The translations under genes and the position numbers were made by a program. A stretch of DNA of 25,413 nucleotides, taken from the IMG/VR virus record IMGVR_UViG_3300027845_000048, positions 1 to 25,413 of that record; one strand, given 5' to 3'. Shown here in pieces: positions 1,312 through 25,413 of this stretch. Under the pieces are notes generated by a model, which did not search any database, was not told where the DNA came from, and was given only the letters and a program-made list of their open reading frames with translations. Each line of letters begins with the position of its first letter. Positions within the stretch are counted from its first letter, which is position 1. Origin of the DNA: a virus. Lineage: Duplodnaviria; Caudoviricetes.

Positions 1312-2175
1312 ATGGCAACTGGATATACAAACATTCTCAAACTAGCGCTCCCCGTATCGGGAGAGCTTGTTGGTACGTGGGGTGACACGGTAAACGACGA
1401 AATCACCCAGATGGTAGAGCAGGCTGTCGCTGGACGTGCAGTAATAGATACGTGGTCAGCTAACTCGCACACGCTCACCACAGCTAACGGGGCTACCTCA
1501 GAATCTCGCTGCGCGATTATCTACATGAGCGACACTGGTAATCAGCTGACCGGTGCCGGCACGTGTATTTGCCCTGCTGCATCTAAGATTTACGTAGTAA
1601 CTAACGCTACTGGCGAGACCATCACGTTCAAGACCGCTTCTGGTACTGGGGTGGCAATCGCGGACGACGCTACCGATGTGGTATTTTGTGACGGCACTAA
1701 TGTTTTGTCGGCAACCCCCGATACTGGCATATCCGCGGTAGTAGATGACACTAGCCCACAGCTAGGTGGCGATCTAGAAGTCAACGGCAACGACATAGTC
1801 AGTGCTTCTAATGGCAATATAGACATAGTGCCTAATGGCACAGGCGCTATAAACTTGACAGCAGACAACACCGCTTTTGGTGGCGGCGTAACTGAGACCG
1901 TGTATAGCCTATCAGGTACTGTCTTACTGCCTAGTAACGGCACGATCCAAACTAAAACACTTACCGGCAACACTACGTTGACAGACTCGCTTTCCGCCGG
2001 CCAGTTTATAACGCTCCTAGTTGACGATGGGGCAGCTTTTACCATAACGTGGCCTACTATAACGTGGGTAACTGATAGTGGCACTGCGCCTACGTTGAAC
2101 ACGTCTGGGTACACCACTATACAGCTGTGGAAAGTTGGTAGTACTCTGTATGGAGCCCGAGTGGGGGACGCCTAA
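1312..2175 (+). CDS. Tail fibre / fibre adaptor protein
   Basis: RBS AGAGG upstream. The N-terminal MATGYTNILKLALP..GTWG anchor, the DTSPQLGGDLEVNG fibre motif and the C-terminal TITWP...APTL...LWKVGSTLYG module are all typical of phage fibres. Confidence 0.75.
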   Translation: MATGYTNILKLALPVSGELVGTWGDTVNDEITQMVEQAVAGRAVIDTWSANSHTLTTANGATSESRCAIIYMSDTGNQLTGAGTCICPAASKIYVVTNATGETITFKTASGTGVAIADDATDVVFCDGTNVLSATPDTGISAVVDDTSPQLGGDLEVNGNDIVSASNGNIDIVPNGTGAINLTADNTAFGGGVTETVYSLSGTVLLPSNGTIQTKTLTGNTTLTDSLSAGQFITLLVDDGAAFTITWPTITWVTDSGTAPTLNTSGYTTIQLWKVGSTLYGARVGDA

Positions 2176-5100
2176 TGCTTCCAGACAAACTACGTGCCGC
2201 TTCTGTCCCATCCGAACCTAACGCGTGGGAGCTAGCTTTCGCTACGTATACGGGCGACGACCAAGCTACAGCCTACCTCGACATATATGGTACGGGGCCG
2301 GTAACTAGTGATCTTGTATACGCGACAATGAACTCCGCTGGGACTAAAGTGCTTGCCCTTAGAAACACGGGCATAATGTCTATAACATTATCTACTGCAT
2401 GGGATGGGGATACCTCAGTCCAATCTAGCGGACGCACCGTGGCGGAGGTTTCTAGCCTACAAGGGATAGCCGCTAAACCCGACGGCACTAAAGTATACGT
2501 GGTGGGGGGTAGTCCAGCTGCCATAGCACAATATGATTTAAGTACCGCATGGGAAATAGGTTCTGCTAGCTACGCAAACACTTTTTCGGTAGCTTCGCAG
2601 ACAAGCGACCCAGTCGGCGTAGCCTTTAAGTCCGACGGGACTAAAATGTACGTTCTTGGCGGTACTTCAGTGTATGAGTACGGCCTTAGCACCGCATGGG
2701 ACACTAGTACTGCTAGTTATTCGCAAAGCTATTCAGTAGCTGGGCAAGCAGCTACGTTCAGAAATATCTTGCTAAGCTCTGACGACACTAAAATGTACGT
2801 TTTTGGTGGCGGAGTCACTGGCGATATTTATCAGTATGCCCTAAGTACAGCTGGGGATGTAAGCACTGCATCGTTTTCTAAGCAGGCCAACATATACCCC
2901 GGATATGTCTACAACGTATTCTTTGTCTCTGATGGGAGTGAAATTTATATTAACCCTCAGAATGACTTCCAATCAATATATTTATACCCTATGGAGTTAA
3001 ACACTGCGTGGGATTTTGGTGGTTTAGAGGCAGATTTAAATTATTTGTCCGCCTCGATAAATATCATGGCGGGCATAGCTTTTAAATCTGATGGTACAAG
3101 GGTATACACCGTACAATATAACAGCACCGCGATAAAAGAGTACACTTTAAGCACAGCGTGGGATCTCGGCACGGCAACTTATGTCGGGTTTAGGACTATG
3201 ACCGCAGATTCTTCGTTATTCGGTATTACGTTCAAGCCCGACGGTACTAAAGCATATTTAGTTGGACGCTCAACTCCCGGGGTATACGAGTGTAATCTCA
3301 GCACCGCGTGGGATTTGTCTACGCTAAGTTATTCGCAGGTGTTGCTGACATCTGCGCAGGACACTGGCCCAATGGCGGTGGCGTTTAAGCCTGACGGTAC
3401 AAAACTATACGTGACGGGATCTACTGCGGATGCTATTTACGAATACGACCTTAGTACCGCGTGGGATGTGTCCACTGCTAGCTTTCAACAATCATTGTCT
3501 GTGTCCAGTGCTACTACTACGCCAGCAGGGCTAGTGTTTAAGCCAGACGGCACTACGATGCTGCTGTTGGGTAGGGAAAGTGCTTCCACTGACTACGACA
3601 AAGTAATAGAGTATGGCCTTAGCACGGCATGGGATGTATCTACTGCTACGGTAACTCAAACCAGCGGGACTTTTTCTTACTTGATAACCTCTTTTGGTAT
3701 GGCCGCATCTTCTGATGGCACTCAGTTATTTATCCAATCTAACTCAACAAAGAATGTCTCTGGCTTAGAAGTAGATAGTGTCTATAGTGTACAGACAATT
3801 GAGTTGGACAATGCTTGGGAGGTAGATCGACCTGCGCTACTCCCAAGATTATCCGGCGATGGGCCGTTCACTACCTATGCCGCAGGCCCGACATTCCTAG
3901 CGATAAAGTCAGACGGCACTGAGCTATACGCGAAATCGGCTAACCCCGCCTTCATATACACCTATGCTTTAAGCACAGCAGGAGACATATCTACTGGCAC
4001 GTTAGTTAGTATTGCAGAACTGGATGTAGCCGGTGTTGGTTTTGCTTTTAAGTCTGACGGCACTAAACTGTACCTTGGGTACCAAGCTGGCGCAGACTCC
4101 GTGCGAGAATACAACCTTAGTACCGCATGGGATGTATCTACCGCGACTTTATTTCAGTCTGAGGATTTATCCGCAAACGTAACCCGCATACAGGGGCTGA
4201 CGTTTAAGCCTGATGGCACTAAAATGTTTGTGACAGATGACGCAGAGGACGTTGTACTAGAGTACACTTTAAGTACTGCATGGGATGTATCTACCGCGAC
4301 TTTTGTGCGTAAAGTAGACGTTACAACATCCGGGCATGCTACGCCGAAGGATATAGCATTTACTTCCTCGGGGACGACGTTACTTTTGGCAGATACACAA
4401 TCCCCAGCACTCCTTTATTTTTCTTTGGGGGAGGCGTGGAATTTAGGTACGATGTCTTTTGTTGGCGATGTACCTTTGTACGTTTTCTCTAATCCAGCGG
4501 GCGTCGTTTTCAACGCTGATTCTTCCCAGCTCTATACTTCCGCAAGAACCAATCTCAGCACTTGGAACATTGTACAGTCTATAGACATCCCGACTCCGGG
4601 CGATGTCACTTCTATACAGGGCAGGCAGCTGTCGCTATCGGGCATAGAAGCTAATCCGCAGGGTGTGTACGTCAAACCGGATGGCACTAAACTCTACGCG
4701 GTGGGCAGTAGCCTAGACTCCGTGCGAGAATACGACCTCAGCACCGCGTGGGATATAAGCACCGCTAGTTTTGTTCAGAGCTTCTCCGTTCTCACCCAAG
4801 ATAACAACCCAAGAGACATATTTTTTAAGCCTGATGGCAATAAAATGTATATCTGCGGGGATCAAAACGACGATGTATATGAGTACGATTTAAGTACTTC
4901 GTGGGATATAAGCACCGCTAGTTTCCTACAGTCCGCGGATATAGTTAGTTCTTGTGGAGGCCTTTACATAAAGCCGGACGGCACTAAGTTGTATATTTCG
5001 CGGCTTGACGACGTTTACGAGTACACACTAAGTACGGCATGGGACGTATCCACGTTGACGTACACTACATTTGAACCTGATAGCGACTGGGCTAATTTAA

Positions 5101-5321
5101 GCGCCCTATCCTTTAAGCCTGATGGCACTAAGATGTACGTCTCAGGTAATCCCACCAATCTTACCGAATACGACCTAAGTACAGCGTGGGACTTAACTAC
5201 GTTAACAAAAGTCTATGATTATGGAAGTAATTGTGTCGGCCTATCTTTCAGGTCAACCGGCTTAACATTTATTATCGTAGACGGTGGAATTGATTCATTA
5301 ATACAGTTAGACATAACATAG
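2175..5321 (+). CDS. Large beta-propeller repeat protein (20 x FKPDGTK...YxLSTAWD), putative receptor-binding protein
   Basis: 1048 aa, coupled to the fibre gene by a TAATG overlap. About 50-aa repeats with K[PS]DGTK and LSTAWD motifs, 20 counted. Confidence 0.8.
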   Translation: MLPDKLRAASVPSEPNAWELAFATYTGDDQATAYLDIYGTGPVTSDLVYATMNSAGTKVLALRNTGIMSITLSTAWDGDTSVQSSGRTVAEVSSLQGIAAKPDGTKVYVVGGSPAAIAQYDLSTAWEIGSASYANTFSVASQTSDPVGVAFKSDGTKMYVLGGTSVYEYGLSTAWDTSTASYSQSYSVAGQAATFRNILLSSDDTKMYVFGGGVTGDIYQYALSTAGDVSTASFSKQANIYPGYVYNVFFVSDGSEIYINPQNDFQSIYLYPMELNTAWDFGGLEADLNYLSASINIMAGIAFKSDGTRVYTVQYNSTAIKEYTLSTAWDLGTATYVGFRTMTADSSLFGITFKPDGTKAYLVGRSTPGVYECNLSTAWDLSTLSYSQVLLTSAQDTGPMAVAFKPDGTKLYVTGSTADAIYEYDLSTAWDVSTASFQQSLSVSSATTTPAGLVFKPDGTTMLLLGRESASTDYDKVIEYGLSTAWDVSTATVTQTSGTFSYLITSFGMAASSDGTQLFIQSNSTKNVSGLEVDSVYSVQTIELDNAWEVDRPALLPRLSGDGPFTTYAAGPTFLAIKSDGTELYAKSANPAFIYTYALSTAGDISTGTLVSIAELDVAGVGFAFKSDGTKLYLGYQAGADSVREYNLSTAWDVSTATLFQSEDLSANVTRIQGLTFKPDGTKMFVTDDAEDVVLEYTLSTAWDVSTATFVRKVDVTTSGHATPKDIAFTSSGTTLLLADTQSPALLYFSLGEAWNLGTMSFVGDVPLYVFSNPAGVVFNADSSQLYTSARTNLSTWNIVQSIDIPTPGDVTSIQGRQLSLSGIEANPQGVYVKPDGTKLYAVGSSLDSVREYDLSTAWDISTASFVQSFSVLTQDNNPRDIFFKPDGNKMYICGDQNDDVYEYDLSTSWDISTASFLQSADIVSSCGGLYIKPDGTKLYISRLDDVYEYTLSTAWDVSTLTYTTFEPDSDWANLSALSFKPDGTKMYVSGNPTNLTEYDLSTAWDLTTLTKVYDYGSNCVGLSFRSTGLTFIIVDGGIDSLIQLDIT

Positions 5322-5331
5322 TGGAGTTATC

Positions 5332-5763
5332 ATGTATATAAAACTGTCTGGCAACCAGATAACTAATTTTCCGTACTCACTAGGGGATCTGCAGCTGGAA
5401 CATGCCAATGTTTCCTTCCCAAAACCTGTACCCGAAGCTGTGCTGGCCGAATACGGGGTATATAAAGTACACTCTACTCCCGCACCTTCATTTGATGCTT
5501 ATGTGGAGACCCTACGACAGGCTTTACCCGAGCTGCAGGTGGGTCGGTGGGAACAGTCTTGGCGTGTCACTAGGCTAGAGCAGTCTGTAGCAGAGCGTAA
5601 TGTACGCGCTAGACGAGACGGCTTGTTGTCTGACTCAGACTGGACTCAGGTAGCTGATGCGCCGGTCGATCAAGCTGCGTGGGCCGTATACCGCCAAGCA
5701 CTGCGAGACATTACCGATCAGGAAGGATTCCCCTATTCAGTTAACTGGCCTACGGCCCCGTAA
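5332..5763 (+). CDS. Tail fibre assembly chaperone (Phage_tail_APC-like)
   Basis: RBS GGAG. C-terminal VRARRDGLLSDSDWTQ...WAVYRQALRDI..Q.GFP..V.WP..P is the family signature. Confidence 0.85.
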   Translation: MYIKLSGNQITNFPYSLGDLQLEHANVSFPKPVPEAVLAEYGVYKVHSTPAPSFDAYVETLRQALPELQVGRWEQSWRVTRLEQSVAERNVRARRDGLLSDSDWTQVADAPVDQAAWAVYRQALRDITDQEGFPYSVNWPTAP

Positions 5764-5779
5764 TAAGTAAGGATACACC

Positions 5780-6115
5780 ATGCCCGCAACTGAAATACAG
5801 CTGGCCCAACTCGAGAGCAAGCTCAACGCTACTGCTAACGATGTAAGCGACATTAAGGGTGTAATGAGCAGCATAGATAAGTCACTGCAAAAGCTCACCA
5901 TTCTTGAAGAGAGGCACGCTCAGACACGCCAAAGTTCAGAACGCGCGCACCAACGAATTGATGAGGTTGAAGACACACTCAAAGATGAGATTAAGGGGCA
6001 CGAGAAGCGCATTCAGAACTTAGAGCTGCACGATGCCAAGGGACTATGGGTTGAACGCGTTGTGTGGGTTGCGGTCGCGGGTATAATCGCCGCTATCATT
6101 AAGATGGGCCTATAA
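5780..6115 (+). CDS. Coiled-coil protein with C-terminal TM helix (XhlA-like lysis/holin accessory)
   Basis: RBS TAAGGA. Heptad-rich N-terminal region, single C-terminal hydrophobic helix VVWVAVAGIIAAII, directly before the holin. Confidence 0.6.
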   Translation: MPATEIQLAQLESKLNATANDVSDIKGVMSSIDKSLQKLTILEERHAQTRQSSERAHQRIDEVEDTLKDEIKGHEKRIQNLELHDAKGLWVERVVWVAVAGIIAAIIKMGL

Positions 6116-6116
6116 T

Positions 6117-6494
6117 ATGAACTTGTTATCACTGATTGACCCAATCTCTACGTTGCTGGATAAAGTAATCCCAGACAAAGATCAGCGCGATAAGCTAGCG
6201 CACGAAATAGCAACACTATCAACCAAGCAGGCACACGAAATTGCTTTACAGCAGATTGAAGTCAACAAAGCGGAGGCTCGCGGCAACTTTTGGCAGTCAG
6301 GCTGGCGACCGGCCACTGGCTGGGTTTGTGTGCTTGGCTTTGGGATCAATTTTCTTATCTCACCTATTGCTAGTGCTTTTGGTGTTCACATACCACAAGC
6401 TGACACTGGGGTGATGTTGCCCGTACTTATGGGCATGCTCGGTCTCGGCGCAATGCGCACTGTAGAAAAAACCAAAGGTGTAGCAAAACAATAA
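6117..6494 (+). CDS. Holin, 3-TM gene-transfer-agent holin family
   Basis: LLDKVIPDKD...QIEVNKAEA..WQSGWRPATGWVC signature, followed by hydrophobic helices and GMLGLGAMRTVEK. Confidence 0.85.
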   Translation: MNLLSLIDPISTLLDKVIPDKDQRDKLAHEIATLSTKQAHEIALQQIEVNKAEARGNFWQSGWRPATGWVCVLGFGINFLISPIASAFGVHIPQADTGVMLPVLMGMLGLGAMRTVEKTKGVAKQ

Positions 6495-6508
6495 ATGCAG
6501 GAGGCACC

Positions 6509-7687
6509 ATGCCTAGTAGATACGCAGCTCTCACGGAAGAGCATGTAAATTACTGCAACACTCAGAAACAAAAAGATCTAGTAAACGCATATCTTGAGTA
6601 TGGATCTGTGCGGAAGATCTCTAGGCAACTAGGGGTGGATACGTCTAATATATGTAGAGCCTTAAAGACGGTTCTAGCCCACGCAGCTCGTCAGGGGTAT
6701 GCACCGGACAACGACCTGAATCACCCCACGCCAGACGGCTATGCTGTCAAGGGCGTATCTACGTACTACAACGAAGATGGCAAAATAACCGGTCAGTGGG
6801 TTAAAACTCAGACCGACCAAGCGCGTCAGATCGAGATGCTCATTGAGCGACTGGAGACAGGCTCGACTAACTTCAAGGCGTTTAAGCCCACAAAGGCGCC
6901 TAAGACTACCGACAAGTCGCTACTCTCCCTGCTGACTATTACGGACTTTCACTTGGGTATGTACGCCTACGAGGCCGAGACAGGTGACAATTGGGACACT
7001 GACATCGCTCGACAAGTATTTCTCGATGCAATCCACCAGATGGTAGACGCAGCGCCCAAGGCACACTACGGCATGCTCAACCAGCTAGGAGACTTCCTGC
7101 ACTGGGACGGCATCCTTGCAGTGACACCTCAATCTGGCCACGTACTCGATGCGGACACGCGATATAGTAAGTTGGTTGAGCTTACTATGGACATCATGGT
7201 TGAGGCTATACGCATCATGCTGGCCAAGTTTGGAGAAGTATTTGTCGTACAGGCTGAGGGCAACCACGACATCAGTGGGTCTATCTGGCTACGCAAGCAT
7301 ATCAAGCACATGTTTAAGGATGAGCCACGCGTATCGGTAATAGACAACGACTTCCCGTTTTATGCCCACCTACACGGCAAGTGCATGCTCGGCTTTCACC
7401 ACGGCCACAAAGTCAAGATGCAGCAGTTACAGCGCGTGTTCTCTAGCGAACCTAGGTTTCGACGTATGTGGGGACAAGCCGACTATTCGTACATTCACTG
7501 CGGTCACTTTCACCACGAGCGCGTTGTCGAGGATGGCGGTGCCATAGTAGAACAGCACCCAAGCCTGTCAGGCCGTGACGCCTATGCAGCTAGGGGTGGC
7601 TGGGTATCGGCAAGAGGTGCTAAGATAATCACTTATCACGAGACCGATGGCGAAGTGCATAGAACAACTGTCCGTCCTAGACTATAA
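6509..7687 (+). CDS. Calcineurin-like metallophosphoesterase with N-terminal HTH
   Basis: RBS AGGAGG. All five motifs are present in order: DFH, GDFLHWD, GNHD, HHGH, GHFHH. N-terminal YGSVRKISRQLGVDTSNICRAL is HTH-like. Confidence 0.85.
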   Translation: MPSRYAALTEEHVNYCNTQKQKDLVNAYLEYGSVRKISRQLGVDTSNICRALKTVLAHAARQGYAPDNDLNHPTPDGYAVKGVSTYYNEDGKITGQWVKTQTDQARQIEMLIERLETGSTNFKAFKPTKAPKTTDKSLLSLLTITDFHLGMYAYEAETGDNWDTDIARQVFLDAIHQMVDAAPKAHYGMLNQLGDFLHWDGILAVTPQSGHVLDADTRYSKLVELTMDIMVEAIRIMLAKFGEVFVVQAEGNHDISGSIWLRKHIKHMFKDEPRVSVIDNDFPFYAHLHGKCMLGFHHGHKVKMQQLQRVFSSEPRFRRMWGQADYSYIHCGHFHHERVVEDGGAIVEQHPSLSGRDAYAARGGWVSARGAKIITYHETDGEVHRTTVRPRL

Positions 7688-7706
7688 TGTGTTAGAGTAA
7701 GATACC

Positions 7707-8114
7707 ATGATAACTGTAATGTTGGAGAAGCGCGGCTCTGACGATTTTGGGAGTGGCGAATTTGGCGCTTCTCGCGGAAGCCGGACGCATAAGGGGATAG
7801 ACTATACGGCACCTGCGGGTGCTGAATTGATATCCCCCGTAGACGGAGAGGTGACTAAACTTGGCTACCCATACGCTAGCGACTTATCTTTTAGGTACGT
7901 TGAGGTTACTGACACTGATGGTATTCGCCATCGTATGTTTTACGTTAGTCCTGACGTTGCCGTTGGTGATTCCGTTAGCCGACAAGATCCAATCGGCAAG
8001 GTGCAGGATATTGCCGGTAAGTACAACACTGACACACGAAAAATGAAGAACCACGTCCACTACGAGATTATCGTGTGGGGCGAATATGTAAACCCCGAGG
8101 AGTTTTGGGCATGA
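7707..8114 (+). CDS. M23 family Zn peptidase (LECT2-like), probable endolysin
   Basis: HKGID (HxxxD) and HVH (HxH) Zn ligands. Catalytic domain only, no signal peptide, located downstream of the holin. Confidence 0.85.
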   Translation: MITVMLEKRGSDDFGSGEFGASRGSRTHKGIDYTAPAGAELISPVDGEVTKLGYPYASDLSFRYVEVTDTDGIRHRMFYVSPDVAVGDSVSRQDPIGKVQDIAGKYNTDTRKMKNHVHYEIIVWGEYVNPEEFWA

Positions 8115-8320
8115 AAGTAAGTAACGAAGCTAAAAAAGTTGGCGGCACGATTATCCCTGAGCACGACATCGAGGTCGTGTGCTCTAACTGCGGATATGAT
8201 GTGGACGAAACAGAGCTGGACGCGGATACTTGCTCAGACTGTGGGCAGCCACTTAACCTACGCCAAAACGTCGCTATTCGTGTAACTACGCTGCCCCCGA
8301 TCCTTGGCGACACTATGTAA
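8111..8320 (+). CDS. Small Zn-ribbon protein (CxxC...CxxC), 69 aa
   Basis: The likely start is ATG 8111 (ATGA overlap with the M23 stop, GAGGAG RBS at 8098-8102) rather than 8075. Motifs CSNC and CSDC. Confidence 0.75.
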   Translation: MKVSNEAKKVGGTIIPEHDIEVVCSNCGYDVDETELDADTCSDCGQPLNLRQNVAIRVTTLPPILGDTM

Positions 8321-8329
8321 GGAGGCGGT

Positions 8330-10174
8330 ATGCCGCTCCAGAAACTCCAGATTAAGCCCGGAGTAAACCGAGAGAACACGCGCTATACCAACGAAGGTAG
8401 TTGGTATGACTGCGATAAAGTGCGTTTCCGCCAAGGCCTACCAGAGAAGATTGGTGGCTGGCAGCGTATCTCATCGGCTACATTTTTGGGTGTTTGTAGG
8501 TCTCTCTGGAGCTGGGTAACACTGGGTGACCTCTCGCTTACTGGTGTAGGCACTAACCTCAAGTTTTATCTGGCCAAAGGCGCACAGTACGAGGACATTA
8601 CCCCACTACGTGCAACTGAGAGCCTGACTAATCCATTTGAAACTACATCAGGATCTTCTATCGTCGAGGTTACCGATGCCGCTGGCGGCTTTAACGACGG
8701 CGATTTTGTTACGTTTTCTGGCGCTTCTGCTGTTGGCGGCGTGACTCCTGACGGCGAATACCAACTTACCCTAACAAGCCCAAGCACATACAGCATTGAC
8801 GTAGGGACTAACGCTACGTCGTCTGCTACGGGCGGAGGCTCAGTCACCGCAGCGTATCAAATAAACATAGGCGCTGCCGCGGCAATTCCAGAATCTGGCT
8901 GGGGGGCTGGCGCTTGGGATGATGGTGCTTTTGGTACGGGAGCCACTTCGGCTACAGTTATTCGTTTGTGGAGTCAGTCTAACTTTGGGGAAGATCTTAT
9001 CTTTGGCCCTCGTGGCGGCCCTATATACTATTGGGATAACAGTGATGGCGTTGATACCCGTGCCGTAGCTCTGTCTAGTCTTGATGGCGCGTCAGAAGTC
9101 CCCATCCAACAAAACCTCATTCTAGTTTCGGATATTAGCCGGTTTGTGTTTGCGTTCGGCACAAATGATGTATTTACTACTACAGTAGACTCGCTACTTA
9201 TCCGTTGGTCTGACCAAGAAAACCCCGTAGAGTGGAGCCCGTCAGCACTCAACCAAGCAGGTAGTATCCGCCTATCGCGCGGCAGTAAAATTGTCGCGGC
9301 CGTACAGTCGCGCCAAGAAGTCCTTGTGTGGACAGATTCTGCCTTGTACGCCTTGCAGTATGTGGGCGCGCCTATCGTATGGGCACCGCAACTTGTTGGT
9401 GAAAACATATCTATCGCATCACAAAACGCCGTGGGCTATGCCGGCGGTATAGCGTTCTGGATGGGCCGTGACAAGTTCTATATGTATGACGGTCGCACAC
9501 TGCCGCTACCCTGTGACGTACGTAGGTACGTATTTAACGATTTCAATATCGAGCAGTACGATCAAGTATTTGCCGGCACTAACGAAGGCTTCCACGAAGT
9601 GTGGTGGTTCTATTGCTCTGCTAACTCCAACACCATTGATCGCTACGTAGTATATAACTACGTAGAGCAGATCTGGTACTACGGCACTATGGCTCGCACC
9701 GCATGGCTGGACTCTGGCCTGCGAGAAAACCCCATAGCTGCTACTTACAGTAACAACATCGTAGAGCACGAGATAGGCAACGACTGTAACACTACCGAAC
9801 TATCACAACCTATAAACGCTTACGTATCGTCCGCACAGTTTGATATTGAGGACGGTGACAAGTTTATGTTTATCTGGCGCGTACTGCCGGATATTACGTT
9901 CGATGGCTCAGACAACGAGGCTCCCAACGCCACAATGACACTGTTACCGCTGGCTAATTCTGGTTCTGGGTATAACGACCCTGCTTCGGTAGCCGGGAAT
10001 AACTCGGCGGTTGTAACGCGAACCGCTACCCTGCCAGTGGAGCAGTTTACGGGCCAGATAAATACGCGCGTGCGTGGCAGACAGTTAGCTGTCAAGATTG
10101 AGTCCACTGATTTAGGCGTAAGCTGGCAGTTAGGTACCCCGCGTATCGACATGCGCCCAGACGGTAGACGCTGA
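8330..10174 (+). CDS. Tail hub/nozzle ('DNA stabilisation', P22 gp10-like) protein
   Basis: RBS TAAGGAGG. 614 aa, beta-rich. The MPLQKLQIKPGVNRE...KIGGW start, IRWSDQE motif and RIDMRPDGRR end resemble podovirus hub proteins of aquatic phages. Confidence 0.7.
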   Translation: MPLQKLQIKPGVNRENTRYTNEGSWYDCDKVRFRQGLPEKIGGWQRISSATFLGVCRSLWSWVTLGDLSLTGVGTNLKFYLAKGAQYEDITPLRATESLTNPFETTSGSSIVEVTDAAGGFNDGDFVTFSGASAVGGVTPDGEYQLTLTSPSTYSIDVGTNATSSATGGGSVTAAYQINIGAAAAIPESGWGAGAWDDGAFGTGATSATVIRLWSQSNFGEDLIFGPRGGPIYYWDNSDGVDTRAVALSSLDGASEVPIQQNLILVSDISRFVFAFGTNDVFTTTVDSLLIRWSDQENPVEWSPSALNQAGSIRLSRGSKIVAAVQSRQEVLVWTDSALYALQYVGAPIVWAPQLVGENISIASQNAVGYAGGIAFWMGRDKFYMYDGRTLPLPCDVRRYVFNDFNIEQYDQVFAGTNEGFHEVWWFYCSANSNTIDRYVVYNYVEQIWYYGTMARTAWLDSGLRENPIAATYSNNIVEHEIGNDCNTTELSQPINAYVSSAQFDIEDGDKFMFIWRVLPDITFDGSDNEAPNATMTLLPLANSGSGYNDPASVAGNNSAVVTRTATLPVEQFTGQINTRVRGRQLAVKIESTDLGVSWQLGTPRIDMRPDGRR

Positions 10175-11016
10175 TGCCCGGCGATAGCACTAGATATAAT
10201 GTGCCGTTTAAGGCTCCGGCACTGCCCTACGCCCCCTCGGAGTATAATCAGCAGGCGTTTGAGCAGTTTAATAACATTTTGCGGATATACTTCAACCAAC
10301 TAGATAACGCGCTGAGAAACGCTATGAGTTCAAGTAACAGCTACTATATGGACGTCGCCCAAGGGCTTGTAGCCGGCGCGACGGCAGTTAACATATTTGG
10401 GTTTAACCGTGATGTGGGTACGGCGTTCGAGACTATCTGGAACGACAGCACTACGTACTCATTCCCCTCTACGGCAGATACCCTAGACCTCGTCTCTACC
10501 TCTACGGCAGACACTATGGACGTGCTGATTACTGGGCTGGACTCTAGCTACGACGTACTCACTGAAACAGTTACCCTGACGGGAACTACGCCTGTATCTA
10601 CGACTAACACGTTTCTACGTATAAACAACGCGATTATCCTGTCGGGATCTAACGCCGGTGATATAACCATAGAGCACGATGGCACAGAGGTTGGACTTAT
10701 TGACGCGGGGTTAGGCACTACACAGCAGTGCGTCTACACTGTTCCACGGAACAAAACGCTGTATCTGCTGCGTATCGACCTGACTTCGGGCACAGTAAAC
10801 GGCAACCAATACCTGACATACCGCAATCACCTGCGAACCCCAGAGGGGCGCGTGCTACGGGTAGCGGAGGCCACATGGCAGGACGGCCAGCAGTCTTTTG
10901 ACCGACAGGTGCCGTTCCGCATCGCTGAAAAGACAGACTTTCAGTTTGAAGCCAAGGGCTCTAATGGCACTAATGAAGTTTCGATCTTTGTCGAAGCCAT
11001 ACTGTACGATAACTAG
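10174..11016 (+). CDS. Tail needle-like structural protein with C-terminal globular beta domain
   Basis: TGATG overlap with the hub gene. The N-terminal PALPYAPSEY...FNNILRIYFNQLD helix is followed by an IFGFNRDV..ETIW beta-rich domain. Confidence 0.55.
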   Translation: MPGDSTRYNVPFKAPALPYAPSEYNQQAFEQFNNILRIYFNQLDNALRNAMSSSNSYYMDVAQGLVAGATAVNIFGFNRDVGTAFETIWNDSTTYSFPSTADTLDLVSTSTADTMDVLITGLDSSYDVLTETVTLTGTTPVSTTNTFLRINNAIILSGSNAGDITIEHDGTEVGLIDAGLGTTQQCVYTVPRNKTLYLLRIDLTSGTVNGNQYLTYRNHLRTPEGRVLRVAEATWQDGQQSFDRQVPFRIAEKTDFQFEAKGSNGTNEVSIFVEAILYDN

Positions 11017-19029: not shown

Positions 19030-22000
19030 ATGGCTACAAGACAGGAAATAGAACGCGCGTTTATCCGCGCGCAGGAAGCGGGTGACACTAGGGCCACAGA
19101 GGTACTCGGTACCGCCCTTCGCGCCGCATACGAGCGAGACAAGGCCGCTGCACAGCAAGAAGATCCATACTTAGCTTACTTGCGCTCAATGCAGCCAGCC
19201 GAAGAAGAAGCTGGATTCTTTGAGAACATCGGTACCGGCTTCGGTGCAGGGTTTGTAGGCACTGCCGAGTCTGCTTCGTTGGGGGCAGCCACTCTCTTAG
19301 AAGAGGAAGAAGAGCTTCGCGCCCGCGAAAAGATCCAATCTGTAGCTGACCGCTTCATGCCAGAAGGCGGCGATCAAGACGCTATATCATACAAAGTAGC
19401 CTCCGGCTTAGGTAGCTTAGCAGGGTTTTTAGTTCCCGCCGCTGCTGGTGTTGCTGCAAGCACTCTTGGTGCCCCTGCCGCTGTTGCTAGTGGGATAGGC
19501 TTGCTAGGTGCAGGTGCCTTGGGTGTAGGTGCTGGTGCAGGTGAGGCTAGCGAACGTGCTCGTGCTTACGGTGCTACTGAAGAAGAGCGCAATATGGCTA
19601 CCTTGCGCGGTGCTGCTATTGGTAGCTTAGAAATACTACCGCTTGGCCGTATCCTGCGTATCCCCGGCGTATCTGAGCTGGGCAAACGTATTGGCGGCGA
19701 AACTATCGAAGAAGGCGGTAGCCGTATCCGCCGTGCATTTGCTACGGGCGGTGAAGAAGCGGCTCAAGAAGCAGCTGCTGGCTTCCTGCAGAACCTCAAC
19801 GAACTTGGCTATAACGCAGAAGCTGAGCTACTAAACTCTGGCCTGATTGACGAGGCCATAGCTGGTGGTGGTGCAGGTGCAATCCTCCAAGCAGTAGTAG
19901 ATACGTTCACTAAAGGCCGTATTCGCGCACAAGAGCGAGCCAAGAATGCGCCCGGGGCTGATCTCGGCGAAGTCGATACAGAAGCAGAAGCCGCTGCACG
20001 TGCTGCAGCGCAAGAAGAGCTTGGCGAAGAACAGCTAGACATGTTCCCAGAAGAAAAAGTCGAAGCCATACAAGGCATGGGCGAGATCTCTGATGACGAA
20101 TTAGCGCAGGCACAACAATACATACAAGATAACGATTTGCCACTCGACGGTGACACCGTCCGTAGTGTCGTAGCTCAACTACGTACGCAGACCCTAGATG
20201 TAGCACCAGAAGCCACTGCAGAAGCTGAGCAACCAGTGCAACGCGACTTAGTGGATGAGATAGACGAAGCTGAGACTGCCGACATAAACCAGATGTACGC
20301 AGAGGGAGCCGCCTCCAAAGTACCTACTCCAGACCCCGAGCTGCCCATCGCTGACCAGATAGAACAGGCTCGCGGCACAGTCAATATGCTGGAAGAGCAG
20401 GCCATCGAGGCCGAAACCGGTAGCCTAGAAGAAGCACAGCTGGTAGCTCAAGCAGAGCGAGCCAGACAAAACTTGGCCGAGATAGAGAGCCGCCGTCCCG
20501 CGAAGCAGGAAGAGACTCCTGTAAATCGCGAAGAGGCTGAACTGGCGGAAAACGTACGCGCTATTGACGATACCCGTGCCTTAGAGCAGCAGCGTACTAC
20601 GGCGGAAGGTCGCGCAGCTATCCTGCAGGAGACTATTGATACTTCTAACGCTACTGACTTTAACGTACTAGCCCGCGATTTTTCAGCCCGTCTAGCAGAA
20701 GCTGGGTACGGCAACACCAGACCCACCGCACGAGAACTTATTACTGCCCGTAGAGCTTTGGCTGTAAAAGCTGCGGAGCCTGCTGCACCTAAATTAGAGC
20801 CCGCTGTAGATGAGCCTGCAAACGTAGCGCCTATAGAAGCGCAGATACCTGAGAGGCAAGCACCGCAACGTGAGCCAGAGCAAGCCTCACTGCCCGGCAT
20901 GGGGCGTAAACGTCAACCAGCTCCTGCGCAAGCTCCTGCCCCTGAAGTTGCCCCAGAAGTCACGCCAGAAATTGTGACCGCAGAGATGCTAGATGGGTTC
21001 GGCGTTAGCCCAGCTGCCCCAGTGCGTAAGCGCGTAGTGGGTAAAGATATTGCCGCACCTGAAGTGCGAGAAGCATTGATTAAGTTTGCGAATAACCCTA
21101 AAGTAGCACAACAGACGCGCCAGAACGTAACCCGCAAATTAGAGGGTACACCGGACGCGCAGTTGGAACTGTTCCAGCCTACTAGAGGAAAAGCAAAAGA
21201 TGCACCACGAACTGCCACCGTCGAACCTACAGCTGCTGTCACGCCAGAACGTGGAGCAAGCCCTGAGCCTGCTGATGTCCCTGTGGGAGGAAGAGCGCCA
21301 GAACCTGTACGAGGACGAGATACCGAGCGACCTGCTGCACCTGACCGACAAAGAGTGGACGAGCCTAAACCTGATGCTCGAGCTGCTGATGCTAGAGAAA
21401 GCACAGAGCGAGATACACTAGAGGCTAAGCCCACTGAACAACCGAAAAAGCGAACCGCCGCAACGCCCGTCGTCTCCAAAGAGGCCACAGCACGTGTCCG
21501 TGCAGCCGCAAGTAAAGCAAAAGCCAAAACTCCGGCGAAGGCCGCCAAGAAACCGGCTGAAGCTAAACCGGCTGCCGTAAAAGACGCCGATAAGCCTACA
21601 CCTGCGGCCAAGAAACCGGCTGAAGCTAAACCCGCGGCCAAGAAACCGGCTGAAGCTAAACCGGTTGCCGTAAAAGACGCCAATAAGCCTATACCTGCAA
21701 AAGAGCGCGGTAAGGCAGCTAACGAAAAGCGCATAGCCGCGGCGATACGTAGCCAAGCTAAAATCACAAAACAATTCACTAATATGGCCCCCAAAGAGCG
21801 GGCTACTAACGAAGATAAAGCCAAGATAGCTGAAGCGACTAAACGCTTTGGTGACAGAGATGATCTAGGGAAAGCAATAAGCGCTTACCTAGGGCGCTCA
21901 CAGCGTGTCGTTGACGGCCTACTGCTGGCTGTACATGACTCGGTATTTAAGACGCCGACTTTCAGTATTCGTAAAGGCACTACCTATGCAGATGTGGCGC

Positions 22001-25000
22001 AGTATGCAGGTATGGACATGGAGGCAGCGAACGAGGTATTGACTTGGGCTCGTGAGAACTTGTCCCCAGAAGCTAACAAGTTTATACGCGAACAAAAAGC
22101 GCTTGCAATTGCCGAAGCTAACCGCATCCGCTTTGGCCGTAAATCTGCAAAAATCCTTGCGGCAGACGAAGCGAAAAACGACGCCATCGCCGAAAGCGAA
22201 GTTGACGCGGCTGCAGAAGCTACTATCGACGAGCTAGACCGCCGCACAAAACTGGCTAATGACTTGTTCGATGTGGACATGGATGCCGACCCCGATGCTG
22301 GCTTAGACAAGATACTCAGCGAGTTTGGCTTCGACCTTACTACTGACGCCGTGGCTGCTAGCAGCATACCCCTACATCCGGGCGTAGTTGCGGAGCTGGA
22401 GGCAGGTAACTTAAAGGCCGCCCTAGAGCTGTTGGGCGCAACTAATCCCAACAAGATGGTGCAGAACGCTGCTAAGAAACTAGCCGGTGTCGCAGGTACT
22501 ACTAAAGTAGAGGTAGTAACTGGCCTCAAAAATGACGCAGGGCAGTCCGTAGCTGGCTTGTTCGACCCCAAAACAAACACGGTCAAGATAGACGCCGTCG
22601 AGGGCAGAAACACTCACGCACTACTGCATGAAGTAACGCACGCTGCGGCATCTGCTACCCTAGCGAACAAGAGTCATCCGCTGACTAAGCAGCTCAACAA
22701 GTTATACAACGACGTCAAAGACAAGCTGGATACCGCATACGGTTCAGTTAACTTGGACGAGTTTGTATCTGAAGCGTTCAGCAACCCAGAGTTCCGTCAG
22801 AAGCTAGCCCGTATTAACGTAGAGAGTGACAAAGCCCTGCAGCGTTTTGTTAACGCCCTACGCAACTTTATGCGGCGCCTGATTGGCGCGCCGGCCAAGC
22901 CTGCTACGTCTGCGCTAGACAAAGCGGATGCGCTTATTGACAACATACTGCACCCAGCACCCGAGTCGCGCAGTGCAGAGCAGCTGCCCCTACTGAGTTC
23001 TCCGTTTAACACCACTGCGTTGGCAGAGGCCATAGGCAAAGTCCAGAAAGATATTCGCAATCTGCCTGAAGGTTCTACGCGCCGTAACGTCGCCAAAGGA
23101 TTCTTTGACCTGTATAACAAAGTGCAGGGTGGCTATCGTTGGGTAATTAACGGCCTTATGGATACGCTGATTGTAGGCCAAGTGGCTAAAAAGTTTGGCT
23201 TCGGTAATCTTGGCATCGACCTGCATGAGGCCATACGTAAGATGCGTGGTGCCATTGAGGTAGCAGATGACGCGTTCCGCGGTAAACTACAAGAAGTAGA
23301 GCGCTGGGTATCTTCCGTTGACGCAGAGACTTTCAAAGCACTCAACGAAGTTATCTACAGTGAAGAGTACGGCTCCACTGTGTACCAAGTAGACCCTACG
23401 CTAACTAAAGCTCAGGCTGAAAAGAAATACAAAGGCCAGACTGACGAGAGTGGTAACTTGCTGATGGATGTCTGGAACGCACAGCGTGCGGACTGGAACA
23501 AGCTAGGCCCAGAAGGCCAACGCATGTATAAACTGATGCAGTCTACCTACCAAGACATGTACGCTAAGCTGCGGGACTCTGTAGGCGAGCAGATTGATGA
23601 CGTGCTGGGTAAAGGTACTGACGCAGCTGTTCGTATGCGTAAAGACGTATTTGAAGAGATGTTCGGTAAAGGCAAGATGGAGATTTACTTCCCTCTGGTG
23701 CGTACTGGCGACTTCAAGTTAGAGTACTACGACAACGGCGAGCGGATCTACCGCAGCTTTGAAAGTAAATACGACCGTGACGCAGCGCGCGAGGCTATTG
23801 AAGGTCAAGACGGTGTATCTAGCGTAGTGGTGTACAACCAAGGCGTCGGCAAAGATTACGTCAAAAACATACCGTCTAACTCGTTCATGGGAGAACTACT
23901 GAAAGTCTTAGAGGCTAACAAGGTAGACCCCAGCGTCCAAGAGCAAATGGTGCGTATGTATGTAGAAGCGCTACCAGAGACCTCATTCGCTAAATCTCTG
24001 CAACGCCGTAAGGGCGTATTTGGTTATGAGAAGAACGCGCTAGAGTCCTTCCGCCGCAAAGGCTACGACATGACTCGCCAAACTGAGCGACTGCGTGGTA
24101 ACGCCCGAATACGCGCCATCATGGCAGACATAGACGCTGTTGAAGAGCCTACGGATGCTAAGAAGAAAGATGGCTTTAATGCCATCAAGCGCGAGATGGG
24201 CGAGCGTGCAAACTTTGCAGTAAGCGGCGCCAAGAACAAACAGCTTGAGGGTTGGGCACAACTAGCTAACCAAGTGGCTTTCGTATACACCATCGGTGCA
24301 AACACCGCCTCGGCGATAGTTAACTTGTCGCAGATACCCCTGTTTGTTATGCCCATGCTCATACCCACGTACGGCGGCAAAAACGTATCGTCTGCCATAC
24401 GAGAAGCCAGCAGTATCGTAATGGGTGCTGGCGTAGGCGAGACGGGTAAAAGTAAGGCCGTTAGGTTGTATCGCAGTGGGCTAGACAGCTACTACAAGCG
24501 CAACGATGACGGCTCCTATACTGTGCGCGACGACTTAGACCTTAGCCCAGAGTTGATTAAGGAGCTTAAAGAAATTGCTCCGCTGGTTAAGGAGGCTAAA
24601 GACCAAGCACAGCTAGGTAACTCACACCTGTTTGATGTGCTGGGCCTCGACGAAGGTTCTCGCGCACAACGCTCCGGTGCGGTGCGTCGCAAGCTAGATC
24701 AGGTTACTGCCTTATCTGCGGTTATGTTTAACTCAGCGGAACGCTACAACCGGCAGGTTACGCTTCTGGCTATCTACAAGCTAGAGATGGCCAAGCTAGC
24801 AGAGTCTAACCCCAACATGTCTTTGGCGGAGCGTCAGCAGAAAGCTATCGACGTGTCTATGCACAAGACCACAGAGTATAACGGTGGCTCGCATCTCGAG
24901 ACCGCCCCACGCTTATCGCAGCAGCACATCGGGCGTATCGCGTTTATGTATAAGAGCTACGGCTTGCGTATGTATGCCACCATGCTTAACACTGCCAAGA

Positions 25001-25413
25001 TAGCTATCCAGCGTACATACCCCGGCGACAGTAAAGAAGCTATAGCAGCACGCAAAGAGGCGCGTCAGCAGTTGGCAGGTATCCACGGTACCGCTCTGTT
25101 CTTCTCGGGCATGTATGGTTTGCCTCTGTACGGCGCTATGGAGGTGTTCTTTAACTTGTTCTTGCAGGACGAAGACGAGGGTGAAGAAGATTTCAATACC
25201 GTGGTACGCAAGGCTATTGGCGAGGGGTGGTTCAAAGGGCCACTAACTGAGTTTACTGGGCTAGACATCGGTAGCCGTATGCGCCTGTCTGGCTTGTTGA
25301 TCCAAGCTAACCGCTTCAACCCAGATGCTTCTCCTGAAGAGACGTTGGTGCACCATATAGGTGGCCCAGCATGGAGCGTGGGTAGCCGCATTGCACGAGG
25401 CTACGACGACATA
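19030..25413 (+). CDS. Giant polyvalent internal virion protein (3'-truncated, >2128 aa) with zincin metallopeptidase and PLxRFG-type domains
   Basis: Manually translated: frame 1 is open from ATG 19030 (MATRQEIERAF...) to the window end with no stop. LLHEVTH at 22621-22641 plus DEFVSEAFSNPEF at 22756; YFPLVRTGD at 23686; LPETSFAKSLQRRKGVFGY; NTASAIVNLSQ. It is absent from the ORF track because it has no stop in the window. Confidence 0.9.
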   Translation, partial: MATRQEIERAFIRAQEAGDTRATEVLGTALRAAYERDKAAAQQEDPYLAYLRSMQPAEEEAGFFENIGTGFGAGFVGTAESASLGAATLLEEEEELRAREKIQSVADRFMPEGGDQDAISYKVASGLGSLAGFLVPAAAGVAASTLGAPAAVASGIGLLGAGALGVGAGAGEASERARAYGATEEERNMATLRGAAIGSLEILPLGRILRIPGVSELGKRIGGETIEEGGSRIRRAFATGGEEAAQEAAAGFLQNLNELGYNAEAELLNSGLIDEAIAGGGAGAILQAVVDTFTKGRIRAQERAKNAPGADLGEVDTEAEAAARAAAQEELGEEQLDMFPEEKVEAIQGMGEISDDELAQAQQYIQDNDLPLDGDTVRSVVAQLRTQTLDVAPEATAEAEQPVQRDLVDEIDEAETADINQMYAEGAASKVPTPDPELPIADQIEQARGTVNMLEEQAIEAETGSLEEAQLVAQAERARQNLAEIESRRPAKQEETPVNREEAELAENVRAIDDTRALEQQRTTAEGRAAILQETIDTSNATDFNVLARDFSARLAEAGYGNTRPTARELITARRALAVKAAEPAAPKLEPAVDEPANVAPIEAQIPERQAPQREPEQASLPGMGRKRQPAPAQAPAPEVAPEVTPEIVTAEMLDGFGVSPAAPVRKRVVGKDIAAPEVREALIKFANNPKVAQQTRQNVTRKLEGTPDAQLELFQPTRGKAKDAPRTATVEPTAAVTPERGASPEPADVPVGGRAPEPVRGRDTERPAAPDRQRVDEPKPDARAADARESTERDTLEAKPTEQPKKRTAATPVVSKEATARVRAAASKAKAKTPAKAAKKPAEAKPAAVKDADKPTPAAKKPAEAKPAAKKPAEAKPVAVKDANKPIPAKERGKAANEKRIAAAIRSQAKITKQFTNMAPKERATNEDKAKIAEATKRFGDRDDLGKAISAYLGRSQRVVDGLLLAVHDSVFKTPTFSIRKGTTYADVAQYAGMDMEAANEVLTWARENLSPEANKFIREQKALAIAEANRIRFGRKSAKILAADEAKNDAIAESEVDAAAEATIDELDRRTKLANDLFDVDMDADPDAGLDKILSEFGFDLTTDAVAASSIPLHPGVVAELEAGNLKAALELLGATNPNKMVQNAAKKLAGVAGTTKVEVVTGLKNDAGQSVAGLFDPKTNTVKIDAVEGRNTHALLHEVTHAAASATLANKSHPLTKQLNKLYNDVKDKLDTAYGSVNLDEFVSEAFSNPEFRQKLARINVESDKALQRFVNALRNFMRRLIGAPAKPATSALDKADALIDNILHPAPESRSAEQLPLLSSPFNTTALAEAIGKVQKDIRNLPEGSTRRNVAKGFFDLYNKVQGGYRWVINGLMDTLIVGQVAKKFGFGNLGIDLHEAIRKMRGAIEVADDAFRGKLQEVERWVSSVDAETFKALNEVIYSEEYGSTVYQVDPTLTKAQAEKKYKGQTDESGNLLMDVWNAQRADWNKLGPEGQRMYKLMQSTYQDMYAKLRDSVGEQIDDVLGKGTDAAVRMRKDVFEEMFGKGKMEIYFPLVRTGDFKLEYYDNGERIYRSFESKYDRDAAREAIEGQDGVSSVVVYNQGVGKDYVKNIPSNSFMGELLKVLEANKVDPSVQEQMVRMYVEALPETSFAKSLQRRKGVFGYEKNALESFRRKGYDMTRQTERLRGNARIRAIMADIDAVEEPTDAKKKDGFNAIKREMGERANFAVSGAKNKQLEGWAQLANQVAFVYTIGANTASAIVNLSQIPLFVMPMLIPTYGGKNVSSAIREASSIVMGAGVGETGKSKAVRLYRSGLDSYYKRNDDGSYTVRDDLDLSPELIKELKEIAPLVKEAKDQAQLGNSHLFDVLGLDEGSRAQRSGAVRRKLDQVTALSAVMFNSAERYNRQVTLLAIYKLEMAKLAESNPNMSLAERQQKAIDVSMHKTTEYNGGSHLETAPRLSQQHIGRIAFMYKSYGLRMYATMLNTAKIAIQRTYPGDSKEAIAARKEARQQLAGIHGTALFFSGMYGLPLYGAMEVFFNLFLQDEDEGEEDFNTVVRKAIGEGWFKGPLTEFTGLDIGSRMRLSGLLIQANRFNPDASPEETLVHHIGGPAWSVGSRIARGYDDI
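21076..21104 (+). promoter_or_regulatory. Putative internal sigma70 promoter upstream of the nested gene
   Basis: TTGATT (21076-21081), 17-nt spacer, TAAAGT (21099-21104). Confidence 0.35.
21200..21421 (+). CDS. Nested (+1 frame) overprinted gene, 73-aa acidic Leu-rich helical protein
   Basis: ATG preceded by AGAGGA (21184-21189) and an A-rich spacer. Protein-like amphipathic sequence ending SEIH. The host-frame codons across this interval are anomalous (Arg CGA/AGA, Gly GGA). Confidence 0.65.
   Translation: MHHELPPSNLQLLSRQNVEQALSLLMSLWEEERQNLYEDEIPSDLLHLTDKEWTSLNLMLELLMLEKAQSEIH
21541..21699 (+). repeat. AAKKPAEAKP repeats (histone H1-like tract)
   Basis: gccaagaaaccggctgaagctaaacc at 21544, 21607 and 21637; gccgtaaaagacgcc occurs twice. 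Confidence 0.9.

Follow-up and report, generated by a model that had tools for sequence, protein, structure and literature searches.

A small gene nested in the +1 frame of a giant polyvalent phage gene is kept across uncultured aquatic phages and ends in a candidate Lon degron

Does an open reading frame of 73 codons, lying in the +1 frame of a giant phage gene, encode a protein of its own, and if it does, what could that protein do? The question is raised by a stretch of 25,413 nucleotides from a tailed phage (IMG/VR record IMGVR_UViG_3300027845_000048; hereafter, the window), which carries a structural module composed of tail and lysis genes, a P22-type stabilisation protein, several ejection-like genes and the giant open reading frame itself. 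The best DNA matches to the window are marine sediment metagenomes, and the nearest cultured phages as judged by other genes (DSL-LC04, CRP-901/902, HTVC023P and Rollin) are all distant. A contig from run X4 spans positions 21091-22431 with 0 letters different from the window, which speaks against an assembly error; it is not independent biology and may share the window's campaign. A low-depth variant contig from run X2 (record 3) corresponds to positions 21124-21396 with 38 letters different, and includes two small insertions, 3 bases in total, just 5′ of the nested start; both frames would survive. Elsewhere in the window, positions 2175-5321 encode a 1048-aa tail-region protein with beta-propeller-like repeats.

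The giant gene encodes a polyvalent protein of the DarB-like, PLxRFG type (Table 1). The protein matches a DarB-like PHROG (E = 2e-20) and has no match in Pfam, and no methylase or helicase domain was found in domain and PHROG searches. Its C-terminal half is 22-28% identical to proteins annotated as DarB-like or PLxRFG in 40 phage records. The residues expected of an MPTase domain, namely H, E, H and two Glu, are invariant in 70 sequences. Because the next long open reading frame lies on the opposite strand in 71 of 77 scored relatives, the giant gene ends the module; gene order thus suggests that its product is probably an ejection protein, encoded by the last structural-module gene in relatives.

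Several local features of the giant-gene frame (hereafter, the outer frame) surround the nested gene. A small conserved domain at about 20970-21175 precedes it in many carriers as well as non-carriers and is missing in the lineage of locus L002, and near-tandem Ala/Lys/Pro-rich repeats follow right after the nested stop (21530-21700). In 80 relatives, the part of the giant protein ahead of the nested gene has on average 1.4 motifs of the form Q-x-[DEGS]-[LM]-F and the part beyond HExxH has 0.01, and under a looser pattern such a motif often adjoins the nested start (35 of 80 relatives). The examples in the window, QLELF and QLDMF, resemble the beta-clamp-binding motif.

Table 1. Positions of the features discussed, in window coordinates unless a locus is named
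Feature	Position	Strand	Remarks
Giant polyvalent gene (DarB-like, PLxRFG-type)	19030..25413	+	at least 2128 aa; runs past window end
QLDMF motif	20032-20046	+	outer frame
Sigma-70 candidate TTGATT-N17-TAAAGT	21076..21104	+	95 nt upstream of nested open reading frame; chance level, not accepted
QLELF motif	21160..21174	+	outer frame, just 5′ of nested start
Shine-Dalgarno AGAGGA	21184..21189	+	10 nt before nested ATG
Nested gene	21200..21421	+	+1 frame of giant gene; 73 aa + TAG
C-terminal octapeptide of nested protein, candidate His-terminal Lon degron	21395..21418	+	family pattern E-[KQR]-x-x-S-x-[LVI]-H
HExxH zincin motif	22627..22641	+	giant protein residues 1200-1204; invariant Glu residues downstream
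PLxRxG motif	23692..23709	+	giant protein residue 1555 on
Second-family nested frame, Pavtok	L211:4623-4850
Second-family nested frame, PEp14	L222:401-628
Second-family nested frame, Stean	L223:401-628
Second-family nested frame, Parlo	L221:341-586
Second-family nested frame, ZX1	L226 near 8044-8343

The nested open reading frame overlaps giant-protein residues 724-798. The initial annotation had described a protein of 18 Leu, 14 Asp/Glu and 4 Arg/Lys behind an AGAGGA ribosome-binding site, and had pointed to a distortion of outer-frame codon usage; all three are present as described. Over 21181-21420, CGA or AGA makes up 11 of the 12 Arg codons of the outer frame, compared with 16 of 133 elsewhere in the giant gene, and GGA accounts for all five Gly codons, compared with 4 of 154. 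Within the strict overlap the skew is significant (Fisher p = 1e-7 for Arg and 5e-6 for Gly) and is unmatched by other 74-codon windows, the best of those that do not overlap reaching a skew of 0.5 versus 1.0 in the overlap. Of 20,000 re-codings of the outer peptide with the gene's own codon usage, 5.9% left the +1 frame open, and none gave as many as 14 Asp/Glu in that frame (mean 1.5).

Searches with the nested protein alone as query were unsuccessful. When orthologous giant genes were fetched by the peptidase region of the outer protein, two of eight held a clear +1-frame homologue in the same place, and a profile search from the first homologues gave 31 loci, all nested. Orthologues were then picked by two domains of the outer protein only, taking the best 80 of at least 508 confirmed relatives for one domain and the best 80 of 336 for the other. 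Thirty of these 160 loci ended short of the linker and were excluded. Using a profile iterated once on matches from the same loci (E under 0.001), the nested homologue was found in 115 of the 130 loci with an intact linker region and was absent in 15, a share that is not a clade-wide estimate since the locus set was ranked by likeness to the window and the seed alignments were mostly carriers. After clustering by outer-protein region, carriers account for 82 of the 94 clusters formed at 95% identity and for 48 of the 58 formed at 60%, and no cluster is mixed; the giant proteins are only about 30-60% alike. All 158 nested-gene matches are in the +1 frame of the giant gene. In 157 the match lies inside that gene, and in the other (locus L197) the giant gene is in two pieces (3858-6477 and 6448-10696) and the match is +1 relative to the first. 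The split results from a frame change downstream of the nested gene, which may be real or an assembly error. The check proposed in the initial annotation came out in favour of the gene: homologues in orthologous giant genes occupy the +1 frame and conserve the start, the stop and the terminal His.

Purifying selection acts on the nested frame, and within the overlap the outer frame is the less conserved of the two. Selection was judged by patterns of identity and codon position. In four bins of divergence the nested identity exceeded the outer-frame identity in 24 of 26, 96 of 100, 300 of 301 and 5464 of 5512 pairs, which are not independent of one another; the respective identities were 0.70 versus 0.55 for the 100 pairs at 70-90% outer identity, and 0.32 versus 0.18 for the 5512 distant pairs. 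For pairs at 70-90% outer identity, the differences at outer codon positions 1, 2 and 3 amount to 0.33, 0.24 and 0.17 in the overlap and to 0.18, 0.12 and 0.44 in the peptidase region, so that the third position is the most conserved inside the overlap and the least conserved outside it. Among 81 diverse members of the nested family P42 and W53 are invariant, and E19, A21, L45, L48, L60 and H73 are nearly so.

The start of the nested gene is conserved as well. From 120 distinct copies, four cut by contig ends were removed (the start is miscalled in about four loci), and in all 116 untruncated homologues a start codon lies before helix 1 (78 ATG, 32 GTG and 6 TTG). A Shine-Dalgarno match of at least 5 nt is found for 79% of homologues and for 7% of 3341 matched control windows, and one of at least 6 nt for 47% and 1%, respectively. 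Conserved start codons and Shine-Dalgarno enrichment together support independent initiation. The TTGATT-N17-TAAAGT element proposed as the gene's own sigma-70 promoter is present in the sequence, and the promoter role was rejected: the element has 8 of 12 consensus matches, below the threshold of a scan that returned 0 sites versus 3.3 expected, and its score is equalled or exceeded in 201 of 720 control windows. No enrichment was seen at homologous starts either (mean promoter score 6.96 for the regions 5′ of 80 starts, and 6.99 in 720 control windows). As the nested gene probably has no promoter of its own, its expression would follow that of the giant gene. With an open reading frame wholly inside a shifted-frame one, a conserved start of its own and purifying selection on the inner frame, we regard it as nearly certain that the nested 73-codon gene is real.

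The gene has nevertheless been lost in some lineages, and in this sense it is probably accessory. The 12 non-carrier representatives are scattered over an 81-member tree (FastTree) with 11 changes, of which at least eight are forced by well-supported branches, and in loci L071, L083 and L205 the outer sequence runs as in the carrier L002 up to the cassette and then continues without it. No copy was found elsewhere in 10 non-carrier records (2 of them at least 90% complete), while five of five carrier controls gave one match each, with no duplication. The gene is probably ancestral, and has been lost at least eight times without relocation. The initial annotation had considered it genetically locked to the polyvalent protein, which in the strict sense does not hold, given that 15 of 130 loci lack the cassette, all of them with HExxH retained. 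In the outer frame, the segment over the nested gene is tolerated as an insert and does not serve as a functional linker; what looks like a 'linker' is for the most part the shadow of the nested gene. Its description as a disordered linker, a convenient site for overprinting, therefore stands in part: the stretch is the less conserved of two frames and vanishes with the nested gene.

The nested protein is predicted to be a small, soluble and mostly acidic helical bundle of no known family. Helices are predicted for residues 15-30 and 50-72 with a short helical turn between them, and the median net charge among homologues is -5. The predicted structure was set against known small helical folds (homeodomain, TetR HTH and FF). 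No homology was found to LarA or to any Pfam, PHROG or NCBIfam family; among 81 members there was no match to the LarA Pfam family, presumably the one named DUF1150, and only weak matches to DUF2922 (8 of 81) and YolD (2 of 81). The family is without a family model because gene callers discard the nested gene wherever the giant gene is whole. None of the 116 homologues has a transmembrane or hydrophobic segment, the highest 19-residue hydropathy among them being 1.25, which argues against the membrane-based superinfection exclusion that had been suggested. An Rz1-type o-spanin was also considered and rejected, on the same hydropathy maximum and on the lack of Cys and of a lipoprotein signal in the window protein.

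A terminal His is found in 108 of the 116 homologues, against a background of 3.5%, and the remaining eight end in Gln or Asn. The penultimate residue is Leu, Ile or Val in 107, and a C-terminal [LIVM]-His occurs in 102, compared with 1.05% of 12,521 other +1 segments of the same genes. Further upstream in the tail, position -8 is Glu or Gln in all 116 and position -4 is Ser in 78. The base that fixes the His falls at a synonymous third codon position of the outer frame and is A in 115 of 116 homologues versus 28% elsewhere; since it is synonymous there, the terminal His is not explained by the outer frame.

Such a terminus calls to mind Lon. C-terminal degrons of the form x-L/I-L/I/V-H are described as Lon signals in which the His contributes most and the third-last residue matters, with variants (PMC11986505). 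LarA, a Lon substrate and Lon activator, relies for both roles on a V-H end that follows a helix, and its residues at -2 and -4 are both Val (PMC10665427). Judged by sequence, the tail of the nested protein appears to fit His-terminal Lon degrons in part only: the terminal His and the penultimate residue fit, whereas the third-last residue differs, being variable in the family and Glu in the window, and strict x-[LI]-[LIV]-H is matched by only 10 of 116. The idea of a His-ending Lon degron, already present in the initial annotation, has gained support from the frequency of the terminal His and its fixation at an outer-synonymous base, and we lean towards the tail acting as such a degron. A degron alone would mean turnover and is not proof that Lon is the functional target, and the core residues P42, W53, E19 and A21 might just as well make up an interface with some other partner.

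Among cultured phages, 13 giant genes were checked and no member of the window's nested family was found. Five of these phages (Pavtok, PEp14, Stean, Parlo and ZX1) have, within their DarB-like genes, another unannotated +1 family with products of about 70-80 aa (Table 1). It ends in Leu-His in all five, with GGAGG before the start in the three Erwinia phages. The two families are apparently unrelated (hhalign probability about 6%), and the giant genes that contain the second differ in domain content. Further acidic +1 open reading frames with a Shine-Dalgarno sequence are seen in giant genes of cultured phages at L211:7095 (Pavtok, 105 aa), L225:6523 (Atu_ph08, 102 aa), L224:9274 (Skulduggery, 129 aa), L226:9799 (ZX1, 129 aa) and L211:13050 (74 aa), of which the Pavtok/Atu_ph08 and Skulduggery/ZX1 pairs look homologous by eye.

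Embedded out-of-frame phage genes are already known, and it is the protein family that is new here. Rz1 inside Rz is one such gene and, like the nested gene of the window, is small, wholly inside another gene, in a shifted frame on the same strand and with its own start. Unlike Rz1, the nested protein is soluble and acidic without a lipoprotein signal or Cys, the outer gene encodes a polyvalent protein of 2,000 residues, conservation is on the side of the inner frame, which has been lost repeatedly, and a partnership with the outer protein is only hypothetical. The ShiLan insertion, by which a phage methylase conceals an out-of-frame HNH endonuclease (PMC11855218), resembles the present cassette in being stop-free in the outer frame, coding in another and present or cleanly absent among relatives; an engineered alternate-frame insertion is also described (10.1101/2024.11.07.622342). 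The window family differs from ShiLan in having no nuclease motif or homing sign, in a presence that looks ancestral with scattered losses, and in its length of 60-80 codons. With LarA, SulA and Y2853 (PMC10665427, PMC11986505) the nested protein shares small size, a C-terminal helix and a terminal His after a branched hydrophobic residue, but no homology to them was found, its third-last residue is mostly not Leu/Ile, it is phage-encoded and nested, and Lon binding is putative. The word 'phage' is absent from the main text on LarA (PMC10665427). The outer gene, for its part, resembles those of MPTase polyvalent proteins (PMC5512222) and P1 DarB in its HExxH with downstream Glu and its DarB-like/PLxRFG C-terminal part, whereas in P1 Ulx is a separate 17 kDa gene (PMC9024508). 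The main text of PMC5512222 has 0 occurrences of 'overlapping' or 'linker'. The literature covered yielded no report of a gene nested inside a polyvalent or DarB-like one.

What might the protein do? It is likely translated from the late structural mRNA via its own ribosome-binding site and start. The free [Leu/Val/Ile]-His C-terminus could then be read by host Lon, and the nested protein would serve as a substrate of Lon while also occupying or retuning it late in infection, in the manner of lambda CIII with FtsH or LarA with Lon; this engagement may allow the ejection proteins encoded on that mRNA, which are long and of low complexity, to persist until packaging. Our best guess, offered tentatively, is therefore a late Lon-engaging decoy or modulator that shields ejection proteins. 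T4 PinA and T7 gp4.5 act against Lon, and lambda CIII is both inhibitor and substrate of FtsH (PMC1838920). By analogy, the nested protein may work as they do, as a small phage protein engaging a host AAA+ protease; unlike it, those are free-standing genes, and no PHROG match ties the nested family to them. A wider picture is conceivable, though we think it doubtful: giant polyvalent ejection genes of tailed phages may host a hidden layer of small +1 genes, at least two unrelated families of which would have converged on Leu/Val/Ile-His to engage Lon, as a phage-encoded, LarA-like controller of Lon co-translated with the ejection protein that it would protect, and much annotated disordered linker would be their shadow.

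The main rival, in our view rather unlikely, is a cis-encoded partner of the giant protein, either a Ulx-like packaging aid or an inhibitor of the HExxH peptidase in the producer cell, possibly placing its terminal His on zinc, with Lon setting its lifetime only. A partner would suit the fixed position of the gene, which lies a median of 376 residues before HExxH and is never free-standing, but the same motif is kept in every cassette-less locus, and no column or region of the non-carrier giant proteins is specifically relaxed beyond multiple-testing noise. Cassette-less giant proteins do fit the family consensus less well (0.68 versus 0.77-0.81, on a consensus from carriers that biases the averages). 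P1 Ulx is listed as aiding DarB localization (PMC9024508), and MPTase domains are proposed to autoprocess polyvalent proteins (PMC5512222), both of which would favour a partner; a second Leu-His family in giants of different domain content would not.

Another host target, such as a defence system or the transcription or division machinery, is unlikely. The region would then merely be tolerant and timely transcribed, and the His tail would just shorten the lifetime of the protein. The gene has never moved in the non-carrier records and is not duplicated in the carriers that were searched, and its retention in most clusters at 95% identity, across giants so dissimilar, speaks against this reading. 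Such retention is more stable than that of typical counter-defence genes. The acidity of the protein makes DNA binding, in particular, unlikely.

Ribosomal frameshifting into the +1 frame, which would give a truncated giant protein ending in the helical domain and His tail, is very improbable. At many loci the open +1 frame does extend well 5′ of the start (by 19 codons in the window), yet 24 of 116 homologues have a +1 stop no more than 5 codons from the start and 7 have one directly before it, and such a fusion is thereby disfavoured. Slippery-like words occur in only 22 of 116, and the Shine-Dalgarno sequence and start position are conserved through exchanges among ATG, GTG and TTG. That the open reading frame is an unexpressed by-product of outer-frame composition is scarcely credible, since its low language-model recognition scores (1749 and 1923, under 2300) are by the tool's own account uninformative either way, and frame-inverted conservation, Shine-Dalgarno enrichment and a His fixed at an outer-synonymous position all stand against it.

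The nested family is thus kept across a broad clade of uncultured aquatic phages. The case shows that a supposed 'disordered linker' in a polyvalent protein can be one of two overlapping frames, and the less conserved of them, with consequences for how these giants are annotated and modelled. Since cultured phages such as Parlo carry the parallel Leu-His family, the question can be taken up in the laboratory, and the shared terminal His offers a concrete and cheap handle on the Lon question. If Lon is the target, the family would count among the few regulators of Lon, as one from the phage side, and provide a handle on host protein turnover.
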